DNA of 64,000 nucleotides. It comes from Candidatus Poribacteria bacterium (GTDB lineage: Bacteria > Poribacteria > WGA-4E > WGA-3G). The translations under genes and the position numbers were made by a program. Shown piece after piece: positions 2,068 through 23,863 of the stretch (position 1 is the first letter of the stretch; each line of letters begins with the position of its first letter). The notes beneath the pieces are model-generated. The model searched no databases and was not told where the DNA came from. It was given only the letters and a program-made list of their open reading frames with translations. The DNA is taken from assembly GCA_965214095.1 (NCBI GenBank), contig OZ243938.1, forward strand, positions 3,008,001 through 3,072,000, read 5' to 3'.

Positions 2068-5000
2068 CTACTTCCGTATCAACATTTTGCGCGTAGCAGT
2101 AAAATCACCTGCTTTGAGTGTGTAGAAATAGACACCTGCCGCGACCTTCTCACCAATTTGGTTTCTGCCATTCCAATGGATAGCACGAGAACGACTGGTA
2201 TACACACCCGCTGCTTTCTGTCCTAATTTCAACTGCCGAACTACAACACCACGCATATTGTAAATTGTCAAGGTTACATCCGCATCTGTGGAGAGTTGAT
2301 AAGGTATCCACGTTTCTGGATTGAACGGATTTGGGAAGTTCGCTAAAAGAGTTGTTTCTGATGGAACAGCGGGGAGTGCAGGTGCTCCGTTATCATCCTC
2401 TTCAGGGATTCTAACACCAAAAATCTCTATGCCCGGATTATTTGCTTTGAGTCTACGGAGTTGCTCAAAATCCTCTATTGGATTGTTGTATACGTTAAGA
2501 TATGTGAGTGCGCTGAGGTTATCAAAGATACCATCAGGGAATGACACTATACCGTTGGCGTGCAGAAAGAGTGAAGTCAACGCGCTGAGATTGTCAAAGA
2601 TACCCTCTGGCAACGAACTCAAGCTGTTGCTGCCCAGAGTAAGAAATGAAAGCGCACTGAGATTGTCAAAGACATCAGCCTGCAATGAACTCAAACCGTT
2701 GCCGCCCAACCTGAGTGCTGTCAACGAGGTACAATTGTCAAAGATACCATCTGGTAATGAACTCACTTGATTATTAAACATCCAAAATTCTATCAACTCA
2801 GCGAGATTGTCAAAGATACCATCTGGCAATGAACTTAAACTGTTGTAGCCTATATTGAGATATGTTAGTTTTGTGAGATTGTCAAAGACACCCGTAGGCA
2901 ATGAACTCAAAGGGGTATTGGACCAAAATCCCCTCAGTGTAAGAGTTGTCAGCGAAGTAAGATCGTCGAATATACCATCTGGCAATGAACTCAAACTGTG
3001 GTCAGACATAGAGAGTGCCGTGAGTCCTGTGAGTCCATCAAAATCACCGATTTTCAAGGTGCTGAGGGACGGCTGCGAATGACCGCTATAAGACAAAGAC
3101 TTAATGCTTGCAAGATGTGTTTCGGTCACATCTCCGGCAGATTCTACTCCTGCTGCTCTCACTATAATATCGCGAATTACCGATGTACGTTCACTCACTG
3201 GTGTAAATCCAACAGTAGAGGCGGGTTCATTGTTCGTGTCAGTGTCGGTGACGCTTTCACCATTTTCATCGGTATCAGTATCTGTTGACGTTCCATCTTC
3301 ACTTGTAACAACTTCGGCAACATCTGTGACGTTGATGGTAACTTCTATCGTAGCAGTAAGACTACCGTCTGAGGCAGTAATTGTAACTGTATAAGTGGTT
3401 TTGGTTTCGTAGTCAAGTGCTGCTTTTGTTTTTAGTTGTCCGGTGCTGCTATCAATATCAAATGCACTTGCATCCGTGCCATCGAGGGTATAAGTCAACG
3501 TATCGTTATCCGCATCTGTGGCGGACACTGCCAAACCGATGTCTACACTGGAGGATGTATTCTCAACGACTGTGCGTGTTGCAGTTTCCCCGTCTGTGAA
3601 CACAGGCGCGTTGTTTGTAGAAACTTCTTCAACTTCCTCTGGGTCTATAGGCAATTCATCTACATTGGTTACATTGATCGTAACAGTGATGGATGTATTG
3701 AGTTTCCCATCAGAAACAGTGATTGTTACCGAATAGATGGTTTTAGTTTCATAGTCAAGTGCAGCACTTGTTTTCAACTGTCCGGTTTCGGTATCAATAC
3801 CGAACGCTGCAGCATCTTGTCCACTGAGACTATAGGTTAACGTGTCGCCATCTACATCGGTAGCACTGTATGCTGTGCCGATGTTTGTCCCTGCTACCGT
3901 ATTCTCTGCCACAGTATGTGTTGTTAGACTGTCAGCAGCAAATACTGGTGCTTCGTTGACATTGGAGATATTGATTGTAACTGCAATTGTCCCCGTTGCA
4001 ATACTATCAGAAACGGTTAGCGTAACCGAATAAGCGTTTTTAGTTTCATAGTCAAGAGCTACCTTTGTTGTGAGTTGTCCAGTTGTGCTATCAATATCAA
4101 ACGCTGCTGCATCCGTCCCACTCAACGTATATGTCAGGGTGTCAGCTGTATTAACATCGGTTGCGGTTATAGCATCACCGATATTTGTGCCTATTGCTGT
4201 ATTCTCCAAGATTGTGCGGGTTGTGCTTGCACCTTCTGTGAATACCGGTGGCGAGTTCAATGGCGGCAGCACTTCCAACGGCAAGGTACGAGATTTGAGA
4301 AGATTATATCCGTTGTGATTTGAAGGTAGCCGCGGTAATGCAGTACCGATATCCACTGTAACAGCAGCGACGGTACCTGCCGTGCGCGTGATTGTCAACG
4401 GTTGACTTTCAACCGCGCCTATCGGAATCGTCATAGTCGTTGCCCCACCTGCTAAAACGCCATTCTCAATCTGGACTGGGATTGTCATCGTAAATGGTGC
4501 CCCACTGGGGACAACAGCTTTAACACTGTTTGTTCCTACCTTCTGAAGCGATATTCTTAACGTCAACAGTGTATTTGCGTTCGGGTTCAAACTCAGATGG
4601 AGCTGACTTAGCTGCGTCAGACCTTCAAAAATCCCAGCTGTTAATGATGTTAGTTTGTTGTTTGATAACGAAAGCGAAGTTAGCGATGACAATCCACTGA
4701 ATATATCTCCCGGTAGGTATGTCAGTTCGTTGTTTTTCAGAGATAATGAAGTAAGCGCGGACAACCCGGTAAAAACACTGCTTGGCAATGAGTTCAAATC
4801 GTTATCAAATATATCAAGGTGTGTCAGTGAGGTTAATTTGCTAAAGATACCACTTGGCAAAGTCGTCAACTTGTTTTCATTGAGTGATAAGAAAGTCAGC
4901 GATACCAAGTCGTCAAAAATGTTGTTTGGTAGACTGGTGAGTTCGTTGTTCTCCAGGTAAAGCGTTCTGAGGGAGACCATGCCATCAAAATCACCAGTTT

Positions 5001-8000
5001 GCAAGGATGTAATTGCGGAACCTGACAGATCAAGTCGTGTAATGGTAGCGAGGTCAACCTCTGTAACATCGCTGCAGTCGCTCACGCCAACCGCCGCTGC
5101 AATCGCATCTGCCACTTCGGTAGTGCGGTTACAAACTGTGAATTGTGTAAGCGTATAGCCGAAATGACCTTGTGGTATACTGGGAAATGTCCCGAAAGAC
5201 ACTTTAGCGGCAGTGCCTATCACTGTAAATGAGGTGCTTTCTGCCCTCCCTTGTGGAATCGTAACGCTCGTTATGCCGCTACTAATACTTCCGTCCGTGA
5301 CAGTGATCGGCAACACCATACTAAACGGTGCTCCTGTCGTAATCACTGCCTTGAACTGACCTGTGCCGACACTTTGGAGGGATACGAAAAGCGGTAGTGG
5401 GTCAACAACGTTGTCCCCTAATCGCAGGGTTGACAATGCTGTTAATCCATCAAATATCCCTGGTGGTAGTTCGGAGAGTTGGTTTCTAAACAGATTGAGG
5501 TCTGTCAGTGCTATCATTCCAGAGAAATCACCTGTTTTGAGCGATAAAATACCCTTACTGCGTAGATTGAGACTTGTAATAGCAGCGACCTGTGATTCGG
5601 TAACAGTTGCAGCATCTGTCACGTTCGGTACTGCATCAACGATTGCATCTCGCACCTGCGCCGTGCGATCCGCAACAGGCACAAACCCGGAACTTAGGAC
5701 AGTATCGTTCACATCAATCACACTGATAATCACTGTGGTCGTATCCGATAGTTCATCATCAGCGGCGGTGATGGTAACTGAATAGACGCGTTTGCTTTCA
5801 TAGTCAAGCGATGCTTCTGTTTTGAGTTGACCTGTTGTGCTATCAACATCAAATGAGGCGGCATCTATACCACCGAGCGAATATGTCAACGTATCGTTAT
5901 TTGCGTCCGTTGCGTTCACGGGATTTCCGATGTTAGTGCCAGCAGCCGTATTTTCGGAGACAACACGGGTCGTGCTTTCACCATCTGTAAATGTTGGTGC
6001 GACGTTTGTCGTTGGTGGATCAACTACTACGGCTTCGTCTATATCGGTAATGTTAATGGTAACCGTGATTGTATCCGTGAGACTGCCATCCGAAACTGTA
6101 ATTGTAACGGTATAAGTGTTCTTTGTTTCATAGTCAAGAGTTGTCTTCGTTTTTAGTTGTCCGGTGCTGCTATCAATATCAAACGCACTTGCATCCGTGC
6201 CACTGAGTGTGTAGGTCAAGGTATCGTTTTCGGTGTCTGTGGCAGCGATCGGTGTGCCGATGTTGGTGGTAGCAACAGTGTTTTCTGTTACAGTGCGCGT
6301 GATTGCGGTGCCATCCGTAAATACGGGAGCAGTGTTGATACTTGTGATAACTGCTAACGGTAGGTCATCAGGTTTTACCAGTGCGTAACCGAAGTGGTTG
6401 CGCGGTAGACTCGGTAAGGTCCCAATATCAATGGTGACATCCGCGGTTGTGCCAGCGGTGCGTGTTACGGTGAGGGTCTCGCTTTCGGTGCTGCCTTGCG
6501 GAATTGTGAGTGACGATGCATCGCCCGTGATGCTACCGTTGCTAACAGTGATTGGCAGGACGAAATCAAACGTCGCCCCCGTGGGGACAACCGCTTTGAA
6601 CTGACCTTCTGCAACCTTTTCCAATGATACGGTAACAGGAAGTGGATCAACTGTATTGCGTGCTAACCGGATCGTTGTCAGTGATGTCAACCCTTCAAAT
6701 ATGCCATCAGGTAGGCTGCTCAATTGGTTGTTAAACAGATTGAGATTTATCAGTGCGGTTAGTCCGGAAAAAATACCTGAAGGTAGAGAAGTTAATTGAT
6801 TATTATTGAGACGGAGGTCTTCTAAACCGGTAAGTCCATCAAAATCTCCTGATTTCAGAGTAGTAATATTTTTGTTATTCAGATATAACGCTGTCGGTGA
6901 AGCAATGTGTGTAGCAGTAATCTCCGCGTAGGTGGAGACATTCGGATAGTCTAAACGGACGACACCGAGGATTGCCTGTGCTACTTGTGATGTTCGGTCA
7001 CCAACAGGGGTAATGTAAACAACTACCGGTGCGGTTGCTGTCGCAGTAAATGTAATCGTCTGTGTGACACCCGGCACACTAACGCTAACGGTATTTGTGC
7101 CAGCAGTATCGCCAAGTGTCAATGTGGTTTGTGCCCTACCGTTTGCATCGGTTGTAGTGTTTGTTGCACTGAGTGTGCCACCACCTGCTGTAATAGCAAA
7201 AGTGACAGGCACTCCCGCAAAAATGACACTACCTGAATCTTTCACTTCAACGATAAATGGCTGTGTTAGTGTTGCGCCGGTTTCACCGGATTGTGTATCA
7301 CCAGATATTTTCACTGGTGTGGTGGCTACTCGGTTGTCAAAGTCAATATACACATCTTTCGCTTGTAGCGCGGGTATGTGTGTATAGATAGACGGATAAT
7401 TCAACGGATTACCACGTATATCAATTTCGGTGGACTCTCCAAGCCCAGTATTTCCGACTAAAGGCGATAGATCGGAGACGCTATTATTTTGAAAATACAA
7501 CTCTACCAGTGACGTTAGATTTTGAACAGCGGATATATTGGATATTTGGTTGTTCGGCATATCTAACCATTCAAGGTTCGTTAGGTTCTGAACAGGTGTT
7601 ATATCTGATATTGTGTTACTGCCGATGCGTAGTTCTGTGAGGTTTGTTAATCCCGTTATCGCTGAAATGTCCGTTATAGTGTTTTCATTCAGATATAACT
7701 GCGTCAGGTTTGTTAAGTTTGAAACTGTACCTATATTTGTGATACTGTTTTCACCGAGTCGCAGCTGCATCAGACTTATCAATCCAGATAAGTCAGAGAT
7801 ATCTGAGACAGTGTTTCCCCACAGGTATAACGTTGTTAGGTTGGTTAATCCGGATAAGTCGGACAGTGTCGTAATCTGGTTGTCCCAGAGTTGTAACTCG
7901 GTGAGTTTTGTCAAGTTCGCAAGTGCCGAGATGTCAACTATTGCATTGTTGCCAAGTTTCAACGTTGTTAGGTTGGTAGCCGTCTCAAGCCCGGTTAAAT

Positions 8001-11000
8001 CGCTAATAGAACTGTCCTGTCCGTTAAGTGAAGTGAGCGTTTCCATCTCTGTAATGGTAATAGTGTCACCCGATGATTTATTGAGGGCATCTTCTATTTT
8101 AGTGCGGAGATTGCTATCAGGGATATTGATACCTGAGGCTATTGATTCTTGTGTTCTATCTCCGATTTGTTCTATCTGCCAAGCATCGTTCTCAACGGCT
8201 TTTGCCTCGAATCGGTAGGTCTTACCGTTGACAGTTGAAATGACACTCATTGAATCGTTAGTAGATATTCTATTTACAACCGTGGCAAGCCAATCCGGTA
8301 ATCCCGGGATGTTCCATTGAGACCTACCATCAGCGATCACAGAGAAAACAGCGTCTGTGTCTGGGTAAGTGCAGCTTTCACCGAGAGTGAGAATATCACC
8401 GACCTTACATACACCTTTGTTGACGAGAACAATTGGGATAACCTCACTGATAACCTCTATAGGCAGATCTGCCGATTTGACAAGGGTATAACCGATATGA
8501 TTTCCAGGTTGACTTCGTAATGTGCCGATATTGACTGTGGTAGCATAGGTCGCACCGGGTGTGCGGGTAACGGTAAGCACTTCGCTTTCCATGCTACCTG
8601 CAGGTATTGTTAGGGTTGTTGCACCACCGCTAATGCTGCCATCGGTAACGCTAATCGGCAGCACCATCTTAAACGGTGCCCCCGTGGATACCACTGCCTT
8701 GAACTGCCCATCCACAACTTTTTCTAATGTGACAGTAAGAGGTAAAGGATCAACAGGGTTTTTATGGATATAGACCGTTGTCAGCAATGACAGACCAGAA
8801 AAGAGACCTTCTGGAATACTCGTCAACCGGTTTTCATGTAAATTTAATACCTTCAACGAAGACAATTCTGAGAACGCACCATTAGCTATACTCGTAATTT
8901 GGTTACGATATAAGGTGATATTATTCAAGTTGGACAGACCCGAAAATGTCTCCGCATCTATGGATGTTATCTGGTTCTGATGTAGGAAGAGACTCGTCAA
9001 CGATGGTAGACTGATAAAGACCTTCGCAGGTAGACTCGTTAATCGGTTGCCATCCAACCGCAGAGATTTCAGTGGGGGCAGACCAGATAAATCGTCCGAC
9101 ACTAAGGAGCTAATCTGGTTTCCATGTAGACTAAGTTCTTCTAACGAGGACAACTGAGAGAATGTATCCCCATCTAACGTCGTAAACTGATTAGCATACA
9201 GATTGAGATGTTTCAGAGCCGGTAGATCAGAAAAGATGTTAGCATCAAAGGTCGTAAACTGGTTGTTTTGCAGTTCAAATGATGTCAGTGACGACAGACC
9301 TTTAAAAACACCTGTTTCAAGTGAGTTTAACTGATTCGAACCAATAGAAAGTGACGTTAGTGATGATAAATCGGAAAATACGCCTTTAGGCAGAGCTGTT
9401 AACCGGTTGTTTGTTAGACTGAGGTAATCAAGTGCTATCAAACCATCAAAGTCGCCCTCTTTCAGTTTTGTGATATTCACACTACTAATGCTCAATCGAA
9501 CAATACCAGCAAGATGTGCTGCGGTTACATCGCTGGCAGAATTCACACTCGGCACCGCCGCAACAATTGCATCACGCACCTGCGGTGTGCGTTCGCTGAC
9601 GGGAGTGCTACCATCAGGAACAAGAATCGGCAGATCAGTAGATTTGACGAGTGCATATCCACTGTGATTTGATGGTAGGCTCGGTAATGTCCCGATATTG
9701 ACGGTAACAGCACCCGTTGTGCCGGGTATGGGCGTTACAGTAAGCACTTCACTTTCCACACTGCCTGCGGGGATCGTGATCGTTGTTACACCACCACTGA
9801 TGATCCCGCTAACGTTAAGTGGTAGGACAATATGAAAAGGTGCCCCCGTGGGTGCCACTGCTTTGAACTGACCATCTGCAACTTTTTGTAACGAAACAAG
9901 AAGAGGCAAAGGGTCAATATCCGAATTCGTAAAACTGAGTAAACTAAGCGATGTCAGCCCTACCAAGATTCCGTTTGGCAAAGAAGTCAATTTGTTGTTA
10001 TATAGATTAAGCTCCTCCAAATTAATGAGATTACCAAAGACACCATCGGGCAAAGAACTTATTTCGTTGCTAGGCAACCAAAGGTCTCTCAACATTGTAA
10101 GATTGTCAAAAATACCAGATGGTAAAGAACTTATCTTATTACGATTTAAATCAAGGCGTTCCAGCTTTGTAAGATTATCGAAAATACCAGATGGCAAGGA
10201 GTGAAAAGAACTACTATCCTCCATATGAAGCGCTGTTAATGCTACGAGATTGTCAAAAATATCATCTGGCAAAGAACGTAAATTGGAACCTTGCAGATTA
10301 AGGCGTTCCAGCTTTGTAAGATTATCAAAAATACCAGATGGCAAAGAACTGTAGTTGTTGAAATCTATTCCAAGGTCTCTCAGCTTTGTAAGATTTTCAA
10401 AGATATCAACTGGGAAAGAACTAATCTTGTTCTGAGCCAGACTAAGCGATGTCAGCGCAGTGAGATCGTCAAAGATATCATCTGGTAAAGAACTTATCTC
10501 GTTGTGAACCAGACTAAGCGATGTTAGCGCAGTGAGATTGTCAAAGTCGCCTTCACCTAGTGCTGTGATGTTCTCATAACTTATAGATAACCGAGTAATA
10601 CCAGCAAGGTGTTCTTCAGTAACATCTGCAGCAGAATTCACACCTGGCACCGCTGCGACGATAGCATCACGCACCTGCGGTGTGCGGTCACTCACAGAAA
10701 GGAATACGCTACCACCCAGTTCTGGGAACGCGAGCGGTAGATCAACGGATTTGACAAGGGAATAACCGGTATGATTTGCTGGTAGACTTGGTAATGTGCC
10801 GATATTGACTGTGGTAGTATCGGTTGCACCGGGGGTGCGGGTCACGGTAAGCACTTCACTTTCCACACTGCCTGTAGGTATTGTTAGGGTTGTTGCACCA
10901 CCCCTAATCCTGGCATCGGTAACACTCAGCGGCACCACAATATCAAAAGGCGCACCCGCGGATGCGACTGCTTTGAACTCTCCATCCAATACCTTCTCCA

Positions 11001-13605
11001 ATAATACAGTAAGCGGTATCGGGTTGACAGTGTTACGTTCCAAGCGAAGTGTTGTCAGCGACGACAACCCAGAGAAGATACCCGCGGGTAAGCTGCTCAA
11101 CGTACCAGAAGACAAGTCAAGAAACGTTAACGATGATAGACTGGAAAAGATACCATCTGGCAGGTAGGTGGGTTTAAGACCTGCCATGCTGAGACTCGTC
11201 AACGATGTCAACTGATCAAACACGTCAACTGGTAGGGAAGAGAGATTATAAATACGGTTCAAGTTGAGACTTTCCAACGATGTCAAATTGTCAAACACAC
11301 CATCTGGCAGGGAGGTCATGTCGTTTTGAGCAAGGTTAAGGAGTGTCAATGATGTTAAGTTGTCAAATACACCATCTGGTAGAGAGGTAAAAGTATTAGC
11401 AGGGGAAGCAGCATCCAAAATAAGTGTATTTAGCTGGGTCAACTGGTCAAAAGCTCCAGCAGGGATGGAAGTAATTCGGTGGAAACCTAAATTTAGACTC
11501 TTCAATGAGGTGAGACTAAGGACTGCTTCAGGGACTGAAGTAAGTCGTGTGTTGTAAAGACTGACACTTTCCAGCGTGTTTAGCCCATCAAAGATGCCGT
11601 CTGGTAGACTGACACCATTCCACCTGTCTATCTCAAGTATTCTCAGTGCGGTCAACCCCGAGAAATCTCCTATCTGAAGGTTAAGAGGTCCTTGTGTCTC
11701 AATCCCTGGGAGGTTAACTCTGAGAGTAGTAATTGCTGCAAGGTGTGCTTCGGTAACATCGTCAGCAGAATTCACACCCGGCACCGCTGCGACGATAGCA
11801 TCGCGCACCTGTGGCGTGCGTCCACCGAGTAAGCTTGGAATTGTGATATCAAGTTCTAAACTTCTACCAGCTGCCTCAATGGCTGCGACGAGCCTACGGA
11901 GCGGTCCGTAATCTGAAATAGAATTGCCAGACAGATAGAGGCTTGTCAGACTTGTCAAATCTTCAACTGCGGATACATCACTAATGGAATTATCTGACAG
12001 ATAGAGGCTTGTCAGACCCGTAAGATTATCAAATATGTCATCCGGTAACGTGGTTAACTGATTCCCAACCATACGCAGATCTGTCAACGAAGTCAGTCCA
12101 TCAAAAAGACCCGCTGGTAACGTCGTCAACTGATTGGAACCGAAGCGGAGCGTTGCCAGTGACGATAAGCCATTAAATATCCCCGGCGGTAACGTGCTTA
12201 ACTGATTTACACCGAATTGGAGCGTTGCCAGTGACGATAAGCCATTAAATATCCCCGGCGGTAACGTGCTTAACTGATTTACACCGAATTGGAGCGTTGC
12301 CAGTGACGATAAGCCATTAAATATCCCCGGCGGTAACGTGCTTAACTGATTATCATATAGGGTAAGTGTTGTTAGTGCGGTAAGTCCGCTAAAGATATCC
12401 TCTGGTAGACTCGTAAGTTGATTATCATAGAGACGCAGCTCCTCCAAACTGGTGAGGCCTTGAAAATCACCAGATTTTAGGGATGTGATGTTTCTATCAT
12501 TCAGATATAAGGTAGTAATTCCAGTAAGGTGGCTATCCGTGATTTCTGCGTAACTGGAAACATTCGGATCGTTTAGACGGACAACGGCGAGGATCGCTTC
12601 TGCTACCTGTGGTGTGCGTGCCCAGATTGGGATAAATACAGGCACTTCGGTAAATGTTAATGGCAGATCGGTAGTTTTTATGAGTGTATAGCCACTGTGA
12701 TCCTCTGGAAGCGGAGAGATACTTCCAATATCCACACTCACATTAGGTGTTTCATCACTTGTGCGGGTTACGGTAAGCACATCACTTTCCAAACTACCAG
12801 CCGGGATTGTAACCGATGTACCCCTATCCAAAATGAGACCATTTGTAAGAGTGAGTGACAATACAATATCAAAAGGTGCACCTGTTGGAATTACTGCTTT
12901 GAACTGTTCCGTTCCAACAATTTCTAATGAGACAGATAGGGACAAAGAACCATTGGTCTGACCTAAATTAACATTCCTAAGATTTGACAACCCATCAAAT
13001 ATTCCATCTGGAAGTTCTGTCAGTTGACTGTACTCCAGACGAAGAGTTACGAGATTTGACAACCCATCAAATAATCCATCTGGAAGTTCTGTCAGTTGAT
13101 TTCGATCCAGACGAAGAGTTACGAGATTTGACAATCCATCAAATATTTCATCTGGAAGTTCTGTCAGTTGATTTTGACTCAGATAAAGAGACTGGAGATT
13201 TGACAACCCACCAAATATTCCATCTGGAAGTTCTGTCAGTTGATTTTGACTCAGACCAAGAGTTATGAGATTTGACAACCCATCAAATATTTCATCTGGA
13301 AGTTCTGTCAGTTGATTACCATCCAGACCAAGATGGCGGAGATTTGACAACCCATCAAAGTCGCCCTCTTTCAGTTCTGTGATATTCTCATCAGCCACAG
13401 ACAAGGTAACAATACGAGCGAGGTGTACCTCAGTCACATTTGCAGCAGAATTCACACCTCGCACCGCTGCGACGATAGCATCGCGCACCTGCGGTGTGCG
13501 GTCACTCACAGGGGTAATGTCTGCATAACCTGTAAGATATGTTCCCAACAACATAAAAATTGTCACGAATATGGATACGATCTGACTTTTCTTTGAATTC
13601 AACAT
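2068..13605 (-). CDS. Giant secreted LRR/cadherin-like/Big protein (3845 aa) with a FlgD/T9SS-CTD-like C-terminal domain
   Basis: AGGGAG RBS and signal peptide. About 10 LRR blocks, mostly 24-aa 'LTSLPxGxFDxL' with an RTxQVRDAIV N-cap, plus one 22-aa internalin-like block. One Big_1-like domain (GVPVTFAITAGGG...TDANG), 5 LDYE cadherin-like repeats, C-terminal NFPNPFNPETW...TRKMLIRK. Confidence 0.92.
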   Translation of the reverse strand: MLNSKKSQIVSIFVTIFMLLGTYLTGYADITPVSDRTPQVRDAIVAAVRGVNSAANVTEVHLARIVTLSVADENITELKEGDFDGLSNLRHLGLDGNQLTELPDEIFDGLSNLITLGLSQNQLTELPDGIFGGLSNLQSLYLSQNQLTELPDEIFDGLSNLVTLRLDRNQLTELPDGLFDGLSNLVTLRLEYSQLTELPDGIFDGLSNLRNVNLGQTNGSLSLSVSLEIVGTEQFKAVIPTGAPFDIVLSLTLTNGLILDRGTSVTIPAGSLESDVLTVTRTSDETPNVSVDIGSISPLPEDHSGYTLIKTTDLPLTFTEVPVFIPIWARTPQVAEAILAVVRLNDPNVSSYAEITDSHLTGITTLYLNDRNITSLKSGDFQGLTSLEELRLYDNQLTSLPEDIFSGLTALTTLTLYDNQLSTLPPGIFNGLSSLATLQFGVNQLSTLPPGIFNGLSSLATLQFGVNQLSTLPPGIFNGLSSLATLRFGSNQLTTLPAGLFDGLTSLTDLRMVGNQLTTLPDDIFDNLTGLTSLYLSDNSISDVSAVEDLTSLTSLYLSGNSISDYGPLRRLVAAIEAAGRSLELDITIPSLLGGRTPQVRDAIVAAVPGVNSADDVTEAHLAAITTLRVNLPGIETQGPLNLQIGDFSGLTALRILEIDRWNGVSLPDGIFDGLNTLESVSLYNTRLTSVPEAVLSLTSLKSLNLGFHRITSIPAGAFDQLTQLNTLILDAASPANTFTSLPDGVFDNLTSLTLLNLAQNDMTSLPDGVFDNLTSLESLNLNRIYNLSSLPVDVFDQLTSLTSLSMAGLKPTYLPDGIFSSLSSLTFLDLSSGTLSSLPAGIFSGLSSLTTLRLERNTVNPIPLTVLLEKVLDGEFKAVASAGAPFDIVVPLSVTDARIRGGATTLTIPTGSVESEVLTVTRTPGATDTTTVNIGTLPSLPANHTGYSLVKSVDLPLAFPELGGSVFLSVSDRTPQVRDAIVAAVPGVNSAADVTEEHLAGITRLSISYENITALGEGDFDNLTALTSLSLVHNEISSLPDDIFDDLTALTSLSLAQNKISSFPVDIFENLTKLRDLGIDFNNYSSLPSGIFDNLTKLERLNLQGSNLRSLPDDIFDNLVALTALHMEDSSSFHSLPSGIFDNLTKLERLDLNRNKISSLPSGIFDNLTMLRDLWLPSNEISSLPDGVFGNLINLEELNLYNNKLTSLPNGILVGLTSLSLLSFTNSDIDPLPLLVSLQKVADGQFKAVAPTGAPFHIVLPLNVSGIISGGVTTITIPAGSVESEVLTVTPIPGTTGAVTVNIGTLPSLPSNHSGYALVKSTDLPILVPDGSTPVSERTPQVRDAIVAAVPSVNSASDVTAAHLAGIVRLSISSVNITKLKEGDFDGLIALDYLSLTNNRLTALPKGVFSDLSSLTSLSIGSNQLNSLETGVFKGLSSLTSFELQNNQFTTFDANIFSDLPALKHLNLYANQFTTLDGDTFSQLSSLEELSLHGNQISSLVSDDLSGLPPLKSLRLDGNRLTSLPAKVFISLPSLTSLFLHQNQITSIDAETFSGLSNLNNITLYRNQITSIANGAFSELSSLKVLNLHENRLTSIPEGLFSGLSLLTTVYIHKNPVDPLPLTVTLEKVVDGQFKAVVSTGAPFKMVLPISVTDGSISGGATTLTIPAGSMESEVLTVTRTPGATYATTVNIGTLRSQPGNHIGYTLVKSADLPIEVISEVIPIVLVNKGVCKVGDILTLGESCTYPDTDAVFSVIADGRSQWNIPGLPDWLATVVNRISTNDSMSVISTVNGKTYRFEAKAVENDAWQIEQIGDRTQESIASGINIPDSNLRTKIEDALNKSSGDTITITEMETLTSLNGQDSSISDLTGLETATNLTTLKLGNNAIVDISALANLTKLTELQLWDNQITTLSDLSGLTNLTTLYLWGNTVSDISDLSGLISLMQLRLGENSITNIGTVSNLTNLTQLYLNENTITDISAITGLTNLTELRIGSNTISDITPVQNLTNLEWLDMPNNQISNISAVQNLTSLVELYFQNNSVSDLSPLVGNTGLGESTEIDIRGNPLNYPSIYTHIPALQAKDVYIDFDNRVATTPVKISGDTQSGETGATLTQPFIVEVKDSGSVIFAGVPVTFAITAGGGTLSATNTTTDANGRAQTTLTLGDTAGTNTVSVSVPGVTQTITFTATATAPVVVYITPVGDRTSQVAQAILGVVRLDYPNVSTYAEITATHIASPTALYLNNKNITTLKSGDFDGLTGLEDLRLNNNQLTSLPSGIFSGLTALINLNLFNNQLSSLPDGIFEGLTSLTTIRLARNTVDPLPVTVSLEKVAEGQFKAVVPTGATFDFVLPITVSNGSITGDASSLTIPQGSTESETLTVTRTAGTTADVTIDIGTLPSLPRNHFGYALVKPDDLPLAVITSINTAPVFTDGTAITRTVTENTVATTNIGTPIAATDTENDTLTYTLSGTDASAFDIDSSTGQLKTKTTLDYETKNTYTVTITVSDGSLTDTITVTINITDIDEAVVVDPPTTNVAPTFTDGESTTRVVSENTAAGTNIGNPVNATDANNDTLTYSLGGIDAASFDVDSTTGQLKTEASLDYESKRVYSVTITAADDELSDTTTVIISVIDVNDTVLSSGFVPVADRTAQVRDAIVDAVPNVTDAATVTESQVAAITSLNLRSKGILSLKTGDFSGMIALTDLNLFRNQLSELPPGIFDGLTALSTLRLGDNVVDPLPLFVSLQSVGTGQFKAVITTGAPFSMVLPITVTDGSISSGITSVTIPQGRAESTSFTVIGTAAKVSFGTFPSIPQGHFGYTLTQFTVCNRTTEVADAIAAAVGVSDCSDVTEVDLATITRLDLSGSAITSLQTGDFDGMVSLRTLYLENNELTSLPNNIFDDLVSLTFLSLNENKLTTLPSGIFSKLTSLTHLDIFDNDLNSLPSSVFTGLSALTSLSLKNNELTYLPGDIFSGLSSLTSLSLSNNKLTSLTAGIFEGLTQLSQLHLSLNPNANTLLTLRISLQKVGTNSVKAVVPSGAPFTMTIPVQIENGVLAGGATTMTIPIGAVESQPLTITRTAGTVAAVTVDIGTALPRLPSNHNGYNLLKSRTLPLEVLPPLNSPPVFTEGASTTRTILENTAIGTNIGDAITATDVNTADTLTYTLSGTDAAAFDIDSTTGQLTTKVALDYETKNAYSVTLTVSDSIATGTIAVTINISNVNEAPVFAADSLTTHTVAENTVAGTNIGTAYSATDVDGDTLTYSLSGQDAAAFGIDTETGQLKTSAALDYETKTIYSVTITVSDGKLNTSITVTINVTNVDELPIDPEEVEEVSTNNAPVFTDGETATRTVVENTSSSVDIGLAVSATDADNDTLTYTLDGTDASAFDIDSSTGQLKTKAALDYETKTTYTVTITASDGSLTATIEVTINVTDVAEVVTSEDGTSTDTDTDENGESVTDTDTNNEPASTVGFTPVSERTSVIRDIIVRAAGVESAGDVTETHLASIKSLSYSGHSQPSLSTLKIGDFDGLTGLTALSMSDHSLSSLPDGIFDDLTSLTTLTLRGFWSNTPLSSLPTGVFDNLTKLTYLNIGYNSLSSLPDGIFDNLAELIEFWMFNNQVSSLPDGIFDNCTSLTALRLGGNGLSSLQADVFDNLSALSFLTLGSNSLSSLPEGIFDNLSALTSLFLHANGIVSFPDGIFDNLSALTYLNVYNNPIEDFEQLRRLKANNPGIEIFGVRIPEEDDNGAPALPAVPSETTLLANFPNPFNPETWIPYQLSTDADVTLTIYNMRGVVVRQLKLGQKAAGVYTSRSRAIHWNGRNQIGEKVAAGVYFYTLKAGDFTATRKMLIRK
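12147..12351. repeat. Perfect 72-bp tandem repeat (about 2.85 copies) encoding identical LRR units
   Basis: Units start at 12147, 12219 and 12291 and encode NQLSTLPPGIFNGLSSLATLQFGV. Confidence 0.9.
12981..13359. repeat. 72-bp tandem LRR array (5+ units) with constant framework and variable 21-nt window
   Basis: GATTTGACAA recurs every 72 bp from 12981 to 13341. Confidence 0.9.
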
Positions 13606-13906: not shown

Positions 13907-14009
13907 CATAGTAAATTATGAATAAAAGTTGACACTTTCGCCCCACGATAGGCGAGGTTTCCTAACCTCGTTGATGCAGAGTGTTAACGTGATTCCAAAA
14001 TCTACTATA
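13907..14009 (-). mobile_element. MITE-like family A copy 2 (inverted, more diverged)
   Basis: Reverse complement of 1782-1884, same length, same hairpin core. Confidence 0.7.
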
Positions 14010-15597: not shown

Positions 15598-18589
15598 CTA
15601 TTTCCGTATCAACATCTTGCGGGTAGCAGTAAAATCACCTGCATTGAAAGTGACAAAATAGACACCTGTGGCGACTTTCTCTCCGATGCTGTTTCTTCCA
15701 TCCCAATGTGCTGCGTGTTGTTGACTCGTGTAGAAACCTGCTTTCTGCTGTCCTAATGCTAATGTCCGAACGACAACACCACGCATATTATAGATTGTCA
15801 ATCTGACATCGGCAGGTTTAGACAACTGATACGGTATCCACGTTTCCGGGTTAAACGGATTGGGAAAGTTGGATAGGAGCAAGGTTTTTTCTGGTACTTG
15901 TTGGATGTTGACGGGAGCTTGACTAACAGCAGGTATCACTATAAGAGGCGGATCTGGATCGACAATGCGGATTTCATATCCGCGGTTATACAAACTGACT
16001 GGATTTAGTGTCAAAACAAGGTCTACTCTAACAGCATCCGTCGTGCCTTCAGTGCGTATCACGTTAATAATTTTGCTCTGATTTTCACCCGCTGTCATCC
16101 GTAAATCGGGGACGGAGCTATAACTACCTGATGTTCCTGTAATCTGATTAGGATCTATTACACCGTTAATAACAGTGACGAATGAGTGAAACGTAGCTGG
16201 TACACCGATAGGACATATCGCGCGGAATTGACCGTCTGCAACTTTTTCCAGAGACACACGGATATCCATAGCTTTATAACCAGCACCTTGGTCACCACAT
16301 TCAAAACTGGATAGTTTTGTGAGACCAACCAACAAACCATCTGGCAATGAACTTAGGTTGTTATTGTCTATATATAGATTAGTCACTTCAGTTAAATTAC
16401 TAAAGATATCAGATGGCAACGAAGAAATATCATTATATGCAACGTCGACTTTTGTCAATTTGGTATTTTCGTCAAATAGACCACTTGGCAATGTAGTCAA
16501 CTTGTTAGCACTGATATCTATTGATGTGAGTTCTGTAAGTTCGTCAAATTCGTCTCCATCCAACGAAGTTAAGTCGATGGCAGATACTGCAAGCGACTGA
16601 AGTTTGGTGAGTTGGTCGAAAATATCATCAGGCAAAGTTGAGATTCCATTACGCGCTATCACCAGATAGGTTAGTTCTGTGAGATTATCAAAAACACCAT
16701 CAGGCAAGGTTGTTATATTATTTACACTTAAATCAAGTCCTTCCAGTGCTGTGAGATTATCAAAAACACCATCAGGTAAGGAATTCAATTCGTTCCGATT
16801 AAATAGAATTTTCTTCAGTGCTGTGTTATTGTCAAAAATACCGTCAGGTAAAGAAGTTATCAAGTTGTTATATATTTGTAATTCTTCCAGAGATGTTAGT
16901 CCATCAAATACCCCAGCAGGTAGGGAAGTCAATCGGTTTGTGCTAAAACTCCTATCATCGTATAGATAGAGTCTTTTCAAAGATGAGAGATTATCAAAAA
17001 TACTTTCAGGCAAAGTTGTGAGTTCTGTGAGACCGAGGTTAAGTTCCTCAAGAGCAGATAGACTGTCAAAAACATCTGATGGTATTGTAGTGAACTTGTT
17101 TGCGAAAAGGTCCAGTTTTATCAATCCTGTGAGTCCATCAAAATCACCTGATAGAAGTGCGGATTGCGTTCCACTTAACACACCAGGAATCTCAAGGTCA
17201 GTTATTGCGGTAAGGTGTGCAGCTGTTACATTTGCAGGATCGCTGACACCCGGAACCTTACCCACAATTGCATCGCGTACTCTCGGTGTGCGTTCATCCA
17301 CAGGTGTGTCCGGAATATCTTCGTTTACATCCGTAATAGTGATTGTGACAGTGATTGTCGCACTATTATTACTTGCACCACTGTCATCCGTCACCTTGAC
17401 AGTCACAGAATACGTACTCTTTTCTTCATAATCCAATGCAGCACTAGTTTGCAGCTGCCCTGATGTGGTGACAATACTGAATGAGGACGCATCCGTGCCT
17501 TCAAGACTATAGGTCAATGTGTCACCTGTATCAGCATCTGTTGCAGCGACGGCGGTCCCGATGTTTTCACCGGACGCGGTATTTTCTGCGATAGAACGGT
17601 CGGTGCTGGCACCATCAGTAAACACAGGCGTGTTGTTTTGGTTTTGCCGTGAAATGCGTGTGACAAGGATTGTCCCAGATATTTCAGCAGTGCCACCATT
17701 CCCGTCTGATGCGATTACGTTTATTGAATACGACGAACTGGTATGATCAATAAGCGTTTGCGTGACTTGGATCTTTCCTGTGGACGTATTTATGGTAAAA
17801 TAAGAGGCATCCGTTCCACCCAGACTATAGGTCAATGTGTCCTCATCAGGATCCGTCGCGGTTACAGCGGTACCGATCGTATCACCGACCGAAGCAGACG
17901 CAATATCTGCTATGCGATAGTTAAAACTATTTGCTGAAAATGTTGGTGCACGGTTCTCATCTACGTCTGTGATGTTAATCGTGACGGTGATAGTGGTGGC
18001 ATCATTACTTGCACCACTGTCATCTGTTGCTGTGACGGTTACTGTGTAGGAAGTCTTTGTTTCATAGTTCAGTGCTGCCTTCGTTTTCAACTGACCTGAA
18101 GTAGTAACGATGCTGAAGGATGCAGCATCTGTGCCAGCGAGGCTATAGGTCAAGGTATCATTGGTATCCTGGTCTGTGGCAGTAACAGCATTTCCGATGT
18201 TGGTATTAGCAACGGTATTCTCAGCGATGGCACGTGTGGTTGAAGCCCCCTCTGAGAACACAGGTGCATCGTTTGCGTCTGTGACGTTAATCGTCACTGT
18301 GATAGAATCTGTGGCATTATCTGGGTCTGAAGCAAATACCGAGATGGAATATGAACTTTTCGTCTCATAATCCAGTGCTGCCTTTGTTTTCAACTGGCCT
18401 GTGCCACTCTCAATACTAAACGATGCAGCATCTGTGCCACCGATACCATAAGTCAAAGTATCATCGTCTGCGTCAGTTGCTGTGATAGCATCGCCGATGT
18501 TCTGAGCAGCGGCTGTATTCTCAGCGATGGATCGGGTCGTGCTTGCATCTGTGAAGACTGGCGCACGATTTTCATCCACGTCCGTAACA

Positions 18590-19800
18590 TTGATTGTCAC
18601 AGCGATAGAAGCTCTACCACCATTTCCATCAGAAACAGAGACTGTCACGGAATATGATGTCTTTGCTTCATAGTTCAATGCTGCTTTTGTGCGTATTTGA
18701 CCTGTTGTGCTATCAATGTCAAAGGAAGCTGCATCTGTGCCAGTCAGACTATAAGTCAGTGTGTCGCCAGTGTCCGGGTCTGTTGCAGAGACAGCACTGC
18801 CAATATCAACACCAGAACCCGTATTTTCGGCTACGGAGCGGGTAGCACTATTTGCAGAAAACGTAGGAGCACGGTTCTCATCTACATCCGTAACATTGAT
18901 TGTCACAGTGATAGAGGCACTACCACCATTCCCATCGGAAACAGAGACGGTAACTGAGTATGAATTCTTATCTTCATAATCCAGTGCTACTTTTGTTCGT
19001 ATTTGCCCTGTTGCGCTGTTAATGTCAAAAGAGGCAGCATCTGTGCCAGTCAGTCTATAAGTCAGTGTATCGCCAGTGTCCGGGTCTGTTGCGGAAACAG
19101 CACTGCCAATATCAACACCAGACCCCGTATTTTCTGCTACAGACAGAGTTGCACTATTTGCAGAAAACGTAGGAGCACGGTTCTCATCTACATCCGTAAC
19201 ATTGATTGTCACCGCGATAGAGGCACTACCACCGTTTCCATCAGAAACAGAGACTGACACAGAATATGATGTCTTTGTTTCATAATCCAATGCTGCTTTT
19301 GTTCGTATTTGCCCTGTTGCGCTGTTAATGTCAAAAGAGGCAGCATCTGTGCCAGTCAGTCCATAAGTCAGTGTATCGCTAGTGTCCGGGTCTGTTGCGG
19401 AAACAGCACTGCCAATATCAACACCAGAACCCGTATTTTCGGCTATAGACCGGGTGGCACTATTCGCAGAAAACGTAGGGGCGCGGTTCTCATCCACGTT
19501 CGTAACATTGATTGTCACAGCGATAGAGGCACTACCACCATTTCCATCAGAAACGGTGACTGACACAGCATAAGAATTATCATCTTCATAATCCAATGCT
19601 GCTTTTGTGCGCAACTGACCTGTTGTGCTAACAATACTGAAAGATGCGGCATCTGTGCCAGTCAGTCTATAAGTTAGGGTATCGTCAGTGTCCGGGTCTG
19701 TTGCTGAAACGGCATCGCCGATGTCTACACCCTGTCCAGTATTCTCGGCGATGGAACGGGATGTGGTTTCACTATCATCAAAGGTTGGTGCGCGGTTCTC
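18590..19800. repeat. 306-bp tandem cadherin-like repeats with high DNA identity
   Basis: 306-bp period visible (19076/19382/19688), encoding ENRAPTFSANSATRS...GGSASIAVTINVTDVD. Confidence 0.8.
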
Positions 19801-22800
19801 ATCTACATCTGTCACATTGATTGTGATGGTGATCTCGTCCTCAAGAGTGCCATCAGACACTTTGACCTTGACTTCATAACGAGCTTTTGTTTCATAGTCA
19901 ATAGCAGCCTTCGTTTTTAGCTGCCCACTTGTGCTAACAATATCAAACGATGCAGCATCCGTCCCACTCAGGTTATAAGTGAATGTGGTATCAGCATCTG
20001 GATCCGCAGCGGTAACTGCTGTGCCAATGTTCGCACCTGCAGCAGTATTCTCGGCAACGCTACGTGTGGCGTTTTCACCTTCCGCGAAAACAGGTGCTTC
20101 ATTGACGTTGGTTATGTTCACCGTGACAGTGATAGTATCACTCAAACTACCATCAGATACGGTGACTGTAACTGTATAGGTGGACTTAGATTCGAAGTTG
20201 AGGACTGTACTGGTTTTTAGCTGCCCAGTTTCACCATCAATACTAAATGCTGATGCACCTGTTCCACTCAGTAGATATGCGAGTGTATTTGTATCTGCAT
20301 CAGTGGCACTGATCGGTGTGCCAATGTTGACACCAGTTGCTGTATTTTCTGCGACAGTCCGTGTTGCGGTTGCCCCCTCTGTGAACACAGGTGCGATGTT
20401 TGAAGGTGTTTCGTCTAAATTTCTGACAGTGATAGTTACGGTAATACTATCACTTCCATTGTTTCCATCTGATACACCTATTGTGACTGTATAGGAGGCT
20501 TTCGTTTCATAATCAAGCGCAGCTTTTGTTTTTAACTGTCCCGTCGTAGATTCAATGTCAAACGAAGCAGCATTTGTGCCGGTAAGGGAGTACGTCAATG
20601 TATCACCATCAACGTCTGTTGCAGCAACAGCACTGCCAATATTTATACCCGCACTAACGTTTTCTGCGATGGTGCGGGTAGTGCTTGCACCATCTGTGAA
20701 CACAGGTGCTTCATTGACGTTGGTAACGTTTATCGTAACAGCGATACTATCACTGCCACCGTTCTCATCAGAAACATTGACTGTTACTGTATAACTCGAT
20801 TTCGTTTCATAATTCAGAGCAGCTTTTGTTTTCAATTGTCCCGAAGAAGTATCAATACTAAAGGAAGCAGCATCTGTGCCAGTCAGACTATAGGTGAGTG
20901 TATCGTTGTCCGCATCCGTTGCAGACACAGCATTCCCAATATTTGTTCCTGATGCTGTATTTTCAGCGACCGTGAGGGTTGTTGTATTACCCTGTGTAAA
21001 GATAGGAGCGTTGTTTGTAGGTGACTCGTCAACATCAGTTACATTGATTGTGACGGTGATGGAGGCACTGCCATCCACACCATCAGACACGGAAATCGTG
21101 ACCGTATAGGTGGATTTAGTTTCATAATCTAATGCTGCATCTGTTCGAAGCTGACCTGAAGTGCTATCAATCGTAAACGATGCTGCATCTGTGCCTTCAA
21201 GACTATAAGTCAATGTGTCATTATCAGCATCCGTCGCAGATACAGCATCCCCGATATCTAAACCTGTGCCAGTATTTTCTGCGACTGAACGTGTTGTGCT
21301 GCTGCCATCTGAAAAGACAGGAGCGTTATTGGCAGGACTCTCATCTACGTTTGTTATGTTAATGGTTACCGTGATGCTATCGCTGCCTTCATTTCCATCA
21401 GAGACAGTAATTGTTACGGAATAGGAGGCTTTCGTTTCATAATCAAGCGCAGCACTTGTGCGTAACTGACCTGAACTACTGTTTATGCTAAAGGAGGAAG
21501 CATCTGTTCCACCGATACCATAAGTTAAGGTATCATCATCTGCATCTGTTGCAGAGATAGGATTTCCAATGTCAACACCAGAACCCGTGTTCTCAGCAAC
21601 AGAACGTGCGGCACTTTCGCCTTCTGTGAACACTGGCGCAGTATTGGTAGAACTCTCATCAACATCGGTAATATTTATAGTGACAATAATAGTGTCGCTA
21701 CCTCCATTTCCATCAGAGACCGTGAGTCTTACCGAATAGGAGTCTTTCGTTTCATAATCAAGCGCAGCACTTGTGCGTAACTGACCTGAACTACTGTTTA
21801 TGCTAAAGGAGGAAGCATCTGTTCCACCGATACCATAAGTCAAGGTATCATTATCTGCATCTGTCGCAGAGATAGGATTTCCAATGTCAACACCAGAACC
21901 CGTGTTCTCAGCAACAGAACGTGTGGCACTTTTGCCTTCTGTGAACACTGGCGCAGTATTGGTAGAACTCTCATCAACATCGGTAATATTTATAGTGACA
22001 ATAATAGTATCACTACCTTCATTTTCGTCAGTGACCGTGAGTCTTACTGAATAGGAAGTTTTCGTTTCATAATCAAGCGCAGCACTCGTCCGCAACTGAC
22101 CTGAACTGCTGTCTATGCTGAAGAAGGAAGCATCTGCGCCAGTCAGACTATAGGTCAAGGTATCCTTGTCAGCATCTGTCGCAACAACAGGATTCCCTAT
22201 GTTGACACCAGAACCCGTATTCTCCGCAACGGAACGTGTTGCGCTACTCCCGTTTGTAAATACAGGTGCACTATTCGCTGTTTCTGGAACAACACCTGTA
22301 GACGTTTCATCTATGTCCGTAACATTTATGGTGATACTTATGCTGTCGCTATACTCACCATCGGAAACAGTAATTGTTACTGTGTAGGAGGATTTGGTTT
22401 CATAATCCAACGCTGCTTTTGTTCTCAACTGTCCAGATGTGCTGACAATACTGAATGCAGACGCATCTGCACCTTCAAGGCTATAGGTCAAGGTATCGTC
22501 ATCAGCATCTGTCGCTGCCACAGCACTGCCAATATCAACTTCTGCACTGGTATTTTCTGCTACAATTCGTGTAGCACTCTCACCTTCGGTAAACACGGGT
22601 GCGCGGTTATCTACGACATCCGTGATATTGATTGTAATGTTGATAGTATCCGTAAGCTTTCCATCAGATACTGTTATCATGACCGCATAAGTCGCCTTCG
22701 TTTCATAGTCAAGAGCAGCTTTCGTTTTTATCTGTCCGTTTGTGGTATCAATGTCAAAGGAAGCAGCATCCGTTCCTGTAAGACTGTAGGTTAATGTGTC

Positions 22801-22863
22801 CCCATCAGCATCTGTCGCTGATATCGGACTCCCAATACCAACATCAGAACTGGTGTTTTCACT

Positions 22864-23863
22864 GAACTCATATTGAGTAAAACATAATAATGCTATATAA
22901 TAGGGAAACACAAGAGTTTATTTATGTCCTATTCTTTCACTTCATATATCTATAACTTATTGAAAGGTGTTGTTATGGCAGACAAGGTTCAAGAGCCCCT
23001 CAGATACAATGGTATTCCGAAGCAGGTTTCACGTAAGGATTTTAATCGTTATATCAAACCTCATCTAAAGAAACGCATAAAAGGTCCCAAACCGAAACTG
23101 TCTTTCTATAAGATATTCAACTATATCCTCTATGTTTTACATACCGGTATTCAATGGGATCAACTCCGCACACGGCGTAATGAACTCCATTGGTCTAACG
23201 TCTATAAATGGCATAATCGTTGGTCAAAAGATGGTTCTTATGAGAAACTTTTTGAAGCATCTGTCATACATCTTCATGATAGTGATCAACTTGACACCTC
23301 TTGTTTACATGGTGATGGTTCAAACACTGTTGTAAAAAAAGGGGTGACACCATAGGGTATTCAGGTCATAAACATCAAAAAGGTGAAAAAGAGGTGGCTA
23401 TCACCGACAATAAAGGTTTTATCATTGGTCCAATAACCCTCAAACCAGTGAACCAACATGATACAACGATTTTGCCCGAGGCATTGACCGAACTCATCTC
23501 CTTCAGCAATCGGATTGGCATGGCACTTGATGGTTCCGCGCTAACGCTGGATTCTGGTTTTGATTCCAAGGTGAATCATAAGATTATTAAAGAACAAGGA
23601 CTGATCCCAGTGATCTACCCTAACAAACGAAACACTAAAGAACCTATCGCTATCGCTCGCAAGTTCCGGTGGTTTAGAAAAGATATATACAAAGACCGGT
23701 ATAAAGTAGAGCGAACTTTCGGGTGGCAAGATACTTACCGAAGACTCGTTCTAAGTTATGATAAACTCAAAGAAACACGTTTAGGTTTTCGTAATTTAGC
23801 ATATTCAATGATAAATTTTCGAGCAACTTTCAACGATGCTTAGATGTTACTCGCTATGAGTTC
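22864..23863 (+). mobile_element. IS5-family insertion sequence, 1000 bp, 3-bp target duplication ACT
   Basis: IRL GAACTCATATTGAGTAA and IRR (reverse complement) GAACTCATAGCGAGTAA match 15/17. ACT at 22861-22863 and 23864-23866. The empty site TTTTCACTTACAG is present in the paralog. Confidence 0.93.
22975..23843 (+). CDS. IS5-family DDE transposase, two ORFs joined by a probable -1 frameshift
   Basis: ORF-A (YVLHTGIQWDQL...HGDGS) and ORF-B (TLDSGFDS, RYKVERTFGW). A7G4 run at 23334-23344, with ORF-B in the -1 frame and open from that run. Confidence 0.85.

Follow-up and report, generated by a model that had tools for sequence, protein, structure and literature searches.

The strand sheet formed by the xxLxLxx segments of leucine-rich repeats (LRRs) is the usual ligand face of these proteins. 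In the LRRs of plant resistance genes (NLR proteins and receptor-like proteins), the x positions of this motif are hypervariable and under diversifying selection, which is a textbook case. Here we describe an array of LRR units with the same kind of variation in a bacterium. The stretch analysed, called the window throughout, comprises 64,000 nucleotides of a Candidatus Poribacteria genome (GenBank assembly GCA_965214095.1, contig OZ243938.1, positions 3,008,001 to 3,072,000). The array lies near the start of a giant LRR/cadherin gene on the minus strand, identified from the list of open reading frames (ORFs) and their translations (2068..13605, 3845 aa). Five tandem 72-nt units of this gene share a nearly invariant DNA framework, whereas the codons of their x positions differ. 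We argue that this pattern probably reflects positive diversifying selection on the concave face of a young array.

The array resembles the LRRs of plant resistance genes in its motif and in the positions that vary. A further likeness is that nonsynonymous changes are overrepresented on the concave sheet, and that the genes belong to multigene clusters with recombination. However, studies in plants have mostly compared alleles or paralogues, whereas the Poribacteria array compares tandem units on a near-identical DNA framework. Additionally, the plant proteins are immune receptors, whereas the Poribacteria protein is predicted to be a bacterial surface protein sorted by the type IX secretion system (T9SS). 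A second point of comparison is provided by TAL-effector repeats, whose DNA framework is frozen except for the specificity codons (the repeat-variable diresidues). TAL-effector repeats have a different fold, a DNA ligand, adjacent variable codons and a small, old repertoire of variants; the variable codons of the Poribacteria array, unlike theirs, are interleaved with conserved Leu codons. Diversity is also concentrated on one binding face in the variable lymphocyte receptors (VLRs) of jawless fish, which in lampreys use the same 24-residue LRR type, and in the products of diversity-generating retroelements (DGRs). Both systems need donor cassettes or a template, and DGRs need a reverse transcriptase. 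Unlike in these systems, donors, template and reverse transcriptase were searched for in the Poribacteria genome and were not found.

Near-identical tandem units also occur in fungi. The WD40, ankyrin (ANK) and tetratricopeptide (TPR) repeats of fungal NLR proteins (HET-E/HET-D/NWD) were described as near-identical units with diversifying selection on the binding surface and with concerted evolution through repeat shuffling (Dyrka et al. 2014, PMC4986451). That paper reports that no LRRs were found among the internally conserved repeats, for which it used a criterion of 85% amino-acid identity. The likeness to the Poribacteria array lies in the near-identical tandem units and in the few binding-surface positions under positive selection, and counting methods find positive selection at such positions in our array as well. 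The five units are 71-83% identical to each other in amino-acid sequence (79-90% in nucleotide sequence), and thus fall under the 85% given there. Exchange among paralogues and polymorphism in repeat number are described there as features of fungal NLR proteins, whereas the Poribacteria framework is unique to one array. Repeat-induced point mutation (RIP) is a fungal process and does not apply here. Our literature search for xxLxLxx motifs and diversifying selection in bacteria yielded, as judged by titles, papers on plant resistance genes only. A search for LRR proteins under selection in Poribacteria or sponge symbionts found no description of the pattern in the titles and opening lines of abstracts. 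Poribacteria were reported to encode eukaryote-like LRR, cadherin and Ig-like proteins, and many of these end in the Por sorting domain TIGR04183 (Kamke et al. 2014, PMC3909097). The passages on these proteins give domain counts and predicted localisation, and contain nothing on variation among repeat units.

Tandem Repeats Finder (TRF) placed the array at 12980-13359, with a period of 72, 5.3 copies and 86% matches. Translation of the minus strand delimits five units. Unit 1 (13267..13338) carries the variable segment RHLGLDG (13318-13338), unit 2 (13195..13266) carries ITLGLSQ (13246-13266), unit 3 (13123..13194) carries QSLYLSQ (13174-13194), unit 4 (13051..13122) carries VTLRLDR (13102-13122) and unit 5 (12979..13050) carries VTLRLEY (13030-13050). 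In the coding register, every variable segment is followed by NQLTELPD(E/G)(I/L)F(D/G)GLSNL. The preliminary description of this DNA, made from the sequence alone, had reported an invariant framework with changing xxLxLxx segments, and we recovered all five segments as it gave them, with the minus strand as the coding strand. Among the five units, 13 of the 15 bases in x codons are variable, compared with none of the six bases in Leu codons and six of the 51 framework bases. The difference between the x codons (13/15) and the other 57 bases (6/57) is highly significant (Fisher exact test, p=3.3e-8). Between any two units, 4-11 of the 15 x-codon bases are different, compared with 1-4 of the 51 framework bases. 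TRF also returned a higher-order period of 216 nt with 86% matches, which we rejected because the pairwise tables contain no three-unit structure.

The codons of the variable segments follow simple rules, and silent divergence is absent from the segments. Leu3 is encoded by CTT and Leu5 by CTG in all five units, and wherever two units have the same residue at an x position, they use the same codon. In x codons 2 and 4 the third position is always T, which fits one ancestral segment that was changed pointwise at positions 1 and 2. Differences can be clustered, as in units 4 and 5, where GAT CGA AAT stands against GAG TAC AGT. The patchwork sharing of variants proposed earlier was also seen: GGT is common to units 1 and 2, AGT CAA to units 2 and 3, and GAT to units 1 and 4. 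Such a patchwork needs recombination or homoplasy among the units themselves. As 5 of the 15 informative site pairs show all four gametes in a four-gamete test, exchange among units is indicated. Exchange with paralogues was not seen, as the framework is unique to the array in a blastn search of its own genome.

Substitutions in the x codons exceed silent change. Within the array, the proportion of nonsynonymous differences (pN) at x codons is 0.62, compared with a proportion of synonymous differences (pS) of 0.056 in the framework. We also made a conservative count, in which a minimum spanning tree joins the distinct codons of each column and synonymous steps are maximised on multi-step paths. 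This count gave 17 nonsynonymous changes over 11.5 sites at x codons (1.48 per site) and five silent changes over 17.7 sites in all 24 codons (0.28 per site). The resulting ratio of nonsynonymous x-codon change to silent change is 5.3 (binomial p=3.3e-4).

The array is young and specific to its lineage. The sister species (genome G041) has an orthologue-like gene, identified via locus L011, which is 85-88% identical in nucleotide sequence over the N-terminus and several kilobases. The synonymous divergence (dS) between the two genes is 0.32 in the cap that precedes the array and 0.34 in a 5-kb region. The region upstream of the array (13339..13605) is 84-85% identical to both G041 and a paralogue in the same genome up to the start of the array, and nucleotide homology to G041 ends at the array's first base. 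Behind its cap, G041 has nine segments, the last of them in a degenerate closing unit; they are unrelated to those of our array and have a different framework (NQISSLPADVFSGLSSL). Since the framework pS is far below the dS between this gene and its counterpart in the sister species, and homology ends at the array, the framework must have coalesced well after the species split. The recent amplification or homogenisation suggested in the preliminary description thus finds support. Among the 39 other genomes of the genus, there was no nucleotide match at E<=1e-10 across the whole array, and within the array there were only two weak matches of 70-71% identity. Exact framework patterns had 0 matches in public genome contigs and 0 in metagenome contigs, sets from which records of this genome itself may have been left out. 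A protein search of metagenome contigs returned only three loci, at 40-41% identity.

The five-unit array is the clearest case of a family-wide habit. We surveyed arrays of 24-residue LRRs in this genome and in loci of nine other genomes, which gave 227 arrays, 831 units and 1739 within-array pairs of units. Fifty of these pairs, from 14 arrays in five genomes, differ at no more than 3 of 51 framework bases, and nine of the 50 come from the five-unit array. In 41 of the 50 pairs, at least 5 of the 15 x-codon bases differ; eight pairs have at most two such differences and one has four. When low-divergence pairs were compared without correction, Leu third positions in the segment differed at a rate of 0.17 and framework third positions at 0.038, an approximately 4-fold excess. 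To control for ascertainment, one half of the framework served to pick the pairs and the remaining half to measure them. In this split-half control, framework third positions differed at 0.12-0.19 and Leu third positions in the segment at 0.145-0.25, whereas x positions 1 and 2 differed at 0.43-0.52. As the two silent rates are similar, against 0.64 in saturated pairs, the age of the segments does not exceed that of the framework. Acceleration is confined to the x codons, where it is approximately 3-fold before correction for multiple hits. The nonsynonymous excess at x positions that the preliminary description had led us to expect was therefore found at two levels, within the array and across the family.

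An even sharper contrast between framework and x codons is found in module 2 of the same protein. The LRR array of this module (12116..12351, minus strand) was delimited by TRF with a period of 72, 3.3 copies and 95% matches. It contains two ATLQFGV + NQLSTLPPGIFNGLSSL units, which have no differences at 66 framework and x-codon bases. The neighbouring unit, TTLTLYD, does not differ from ATLQFGV at any of the 51 framework bases, but differs at 9 of the 15 x-codon bases.

Based on these results, we propose a model for how the array arose. One 24-residue, 'typical' animal-like LRR unit may have been amplified by unequal recombination after the split from the sister species, or an existing array may have been homogenised by the same process. 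The units would then have kept exchanging short pieces among themselves. Fixation of amino-acid changes would have favoured the five x positions of xxLxLxx, which are solvent-exposed, while the near-identical DNA framework was kept. On the concave face, these x positions would make up the parallel beta sheet, and diversifying selection would favour new binding specificities there. The ligand would be a surface molecule of a host, a phage or prey. We infer that selection, rather than a mutational device, drives the changes in the x codons.

We give this interpretation, namely positive diversifying selection on the concave face of a young array with recombination inside the array, a probability of roughly 65%. 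Several points weigh against it. The evidence for selection comes from counting methods, in which the pairs of units depend on one another and simple dN/dS values are raised by recombination. It draws on comparisons between units of one genome and with other species. For point mutation combined with selection, the ratio found in the array (5 to more than 10) is large. Several pairs in several arrays and species combine 0/51 framework differences with 8-9 differences at the 15 x-codon bases, and the extreme pair, ETLYLHD and KALRLSG in genome G021, illustrates that such cases are much for stepwise substitution. These extreme ratios and pairs leave room for an unrecognised mutational or recombinational device. 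The opposite case is found elsewhere in the same genome, outside the window (C1:129987, minus strand), where three EELRLGN segments are identical while 7 of 57 non-x bases (framework plus Leu codons) differ, and the family also holds whole-unit duplicates with no change at x positions. Diversification is therefore not universal.

Among the other explanations, the one that fares best is that the segments are old and distinct and that short-tract gene conversion has homogenised the 51-nt framework alone, so that the array only looks young. We consider this unlikely. Framework-restricted concerted evolution is commonly assumed for TAL-effector repeats. Each array of the Poribacteria family has its own framework, a hallmark of concerted evolution, and the failures of the four-gamete test show exchange among units. 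Additionally, the uncorrected silent sites appear approximately four times more diverged in the segment than in the framework. However, this excess is an ascertainment effect, as it disappears in the split-half control, and we have therefore rejected the greater age of the segments that it seemed to indicate. None of the five units differs from another in its Leu codons, which lie between x codons, and shared residues have the same codon. Conversion tracts cannot account for such 3-nt Leu islands that stay identical between diverged codons. The sister species, moreover, has none of the five segments. As the silent sites of the segment are about as young as those of the framework, they argue against old segments and also against a local mutator that hits the Leu third positions.

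It is also possible in principle that relaxed constraint alone accounts for the pattern, if x positions were free to vary on a young array without positive selection. The x positions are the least constrained of the LRR motif, and in saturated pairs of the family, x positions and silent sites have diverged to about the same extent. Neutral change, however, cannot exceed the silent rate (a ratio of 1), and the 5.3-fold excess of x-codon change in the array, together with the approximately 3-fold excess across the family, contradicts relaxed constraint. We regard this explanation as improbable.

Slightly less probable still is a dedicated device that rewrites the segments, such as a DGR, the copying of cassettes (as in lamprey VLRs or pilin antigenic variation) or another targeted mutator. 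Pairs of units with no framework differences and 8-9 x-codon differences would fit such a device, as would differences in multi-base clusters such as those between units 4 and 5. The preliminary description had offered targeted micro-conversion from donor copies as one possibility. However, blastn of one unit returned only the array itself, and there is no second copy of the framework in the 5.25-Mb genome, which is 94.5% complete. A fuzzy search of the genome for the five 21-nt segments found no second copy at up to three mismatches. There was no match to the RVT_1 reverse transcriptase in the genome either, in a search whose control was positive in 3 of 14 genomes. Micro-conversion from donors is not supported by these results. 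A DGR target was rejected, as the genome has neither RVT_1 nor a template repeat for the framework or the segments. Cassette-based variation of the VLR or pilin type was rejected as well, as there are no silent donors and a genome search at up to three mismatches gave a single copy of each segment. Within the segment, Leu third positions are not clearly more mutated than framework third positions, and the constant T that ends x codons 2 and 4 fits descent by point changes better than replacement. In sum, what these results support in the preliminary interpretation is diversifying selection acting on an array that was amplified or homogenised recently; they do not support targeted micro-conversion from donor copies.

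Sequencing runs provide a further view of the array. Logan contigs from three runs of one study (X2, X3 and X5; depth approximately 27-330), which may be the source sample, match 12400-13025, 12998-13165 and 13288-13490 with no other letters. Among the contig pieces listed, none spans 13166-13287. The contigs listed from these three runs, at up to approximately 330x, hold one form only, which speaks against a device that rewrites segments, although contigs lose rare variants. A viral metagenome (X1, share 0.07) contributed, among the pieces listed, a 102-nt piece on 12996-13097 with 12 differences.

Because pairs with 0/51 framework and 8-9/15 x-codon differences recur in several arrays and species, we keep one more idea in view, although we think it about as improbable as a device of a known kind. 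Poribacteria would run a system, independent of reverse transcriptase and donors, that rewrites concave-face codons faster than silent substitutions accumulate. If this were true, the dozens of giant LRR proteins in these bacteria would offer a stock of binding sites that is renewed continuously and directed at the surfaces of hosts, phages or prey. Such a stock would parallel, in bacteria, the variable LRR receptors found in jawless fish. Last, an assembly or polishing artefact is barely credible: repeat arrays do collapse easily, and 13166-13287 has no listed contig piece on it, but the differences are in frame and codon-specific, the contigs of three runs match the remaining parts without a difference, and the same pattern is found in four other genomes.

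The predicted structure is consistent with the placement of the x positions on the LRR sheet that the preliminary description had stated. We made a single-sequence AlphaFold2 model of residues 27-330. Over the LRR array its confidence (pLDDT) is 70-92, and there is one short strand per 24 residues, at segment positions 2-4 (model residues 41-43, 65-67, 89-91, 113-115, 137-139 and 161-166). In this model the x positions lie on the repeating beta strands of a solenoid. Helices are predicted at model residues 12-22 and 33-36, where pLDDT is <50 (model residues 1-35). In an alignment, the units agree with the 24-residue consensus LxxLxLxxNxLxxLPxxxFxxLxx, which we take to be that of the 'typical' LRR subtype. 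The closest solved sequences are those of LRRC15 (E=3.9e-96), LRRTM, SHOC-2, LGR4, variable lymphocyte receptors and TLR3. Leptospira LIC11098 and LIC10831 are also among the sequence matches of the array.

The array is part of a protein with a modular plan. The 3845-aa product is predicted to be a secreted or surface protein. Its translation contains nine modules, each consisting of a helical cap followed by an LRR array. Regular-expression searches found nine cap motifs (RTPQVRDAI...) and an Ig-like 'FKAV..GAPF' beta domain that closes six of the nine modules. Beyond the nine modules, the protein has one internalin-like LRR block and cadherin domains. Pfam searches matched LRR_8 in 36 stretches (E=5.6e-271) and Cadherin in five stretches (E=4.9e-57). 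The five-unit array belongs to module 1, as the translation and the cap motifs agree with the earlier placement in the N-terminal-most module. The region that precedes it (13339..13605, minus strand) translates into a signal-peptide-like stretch, a helical cap (RTPQVRDAIVAAV...) and an initial LRR unit that is not amplified but whose last 21 nt (FDGLSNL) already match the array framework. The hydrophobic N-terminal stretch was judged signal-peptide-like by eye only. Module 1 ends, by translation, with a degenerate closing unit (RNVNLGQ...) and an Ig-like beta domain (12616..12978, minus strand). AlphaFold2 modelled the Ig-like part as long strands with pLDDT <50, so that its fold is not established. 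At the C-terminus (2077..2337, minus strand), TIGR04183 scored 42.2 bits against a cut-off of 23 and Pfam FlgD_ig scored 31.7 bits against a cut-off of 27; the former score identifies a T9SS type A sorting domain.

Comparison with related genes provides further observations on this architecture. The counterpart in the sister species (L107, G041:C4:1578300-1598299) is far longer, with an open frame of 6671 aa. Behind module 1 it has a cadherin-like stretch and a zinc-metallopeptidase-like region with the motif HELAHAFGLHH, which is not present at the corresponding position of the window protein. The gene is a mosaic, with modules gained and lost. In the genome of the window itself, a second giant gene (C1:3458661-3459006, ORF of 4703 aa) has an upstream region, signal peptide and cap that are 85% identical in nucleotide sequence to those of the window gene, and diverges from it where its LRR array begins. 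The leader and cap at the N-terminus look like a cassette that has been used more than once.

The protein is a member of a very large, 'eukaryote-like' LRR/cadherin family in Candidatus Poribacteria, which are sponge symbionts. A whole-genome search with the LRR module gave 91 matches in its own genome. At least three further genes of the window match the LRR module (ORFs 15598..22911, 26496..39392 and 40746..42848), among them minus-strand ORFs of 2437 aa and 4298 aa. Very large minus-strand ORFs thus occupy 15598-22911, 23840-39392 and 40746-42848, in a region that is a cluster of surface-protein genes. At 18563-19714, TRF found 3.8 tandem copies of a 306-nt repeat. A 700-aa protein of the window combines LRRs with weak matches to metallopeptidase families.

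Other observations concern the wider genome. An interspersed repeat of approximately 104 nt with an internal palindrome lies on both sides of the giant gene in inverted orientation (13908-14009 and 1782-1884). Its two copies gave 151 and 181 blastn matches in the same genome, and G041 has dozens of copies at 96-99% identity. The repeat also coincides with a depth spike in the contig runs. It looks like a repetitive extragenic palindromic (REP) element or a miniature inverted-repeat transposable element (MITE). The window's gene for phosphoenolpyruvate carboxykinase (PEPCK) has matches of up to 98% identity in Candidatus Poribacteria metagenome-assembled genomes (MAGs). Contig C2 of the assembly (32 kb) has a G+C content of 64%, compared with 41% for the main contig, and could represent contamination of the bin or a foreign element.

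The pattern of the five-unit array follows a familiar evolutionary logic, but it is real, statistically sound and general in the family. Plant LRR receptors and fungal NLR repeats are known for a regime in which binding positions are hypervariable on an almost uniform framework of repeats, and the array extends this regime to bacterial surface proteins. In many arrays of several species, concave faces are remodelled faster than silent sites, which points to the residues that contact ligand. This suggests an ongoing conflict or matching with a variable partner, for example host receptors, phages or other microbes. Sponge symbionts have very large sets of eukaryote-like repeat proteins. The combination of framework identity with x-codon divergence offers a simple signature by which the most actively evolving binding modules can be recognised in uncultured symbionts.

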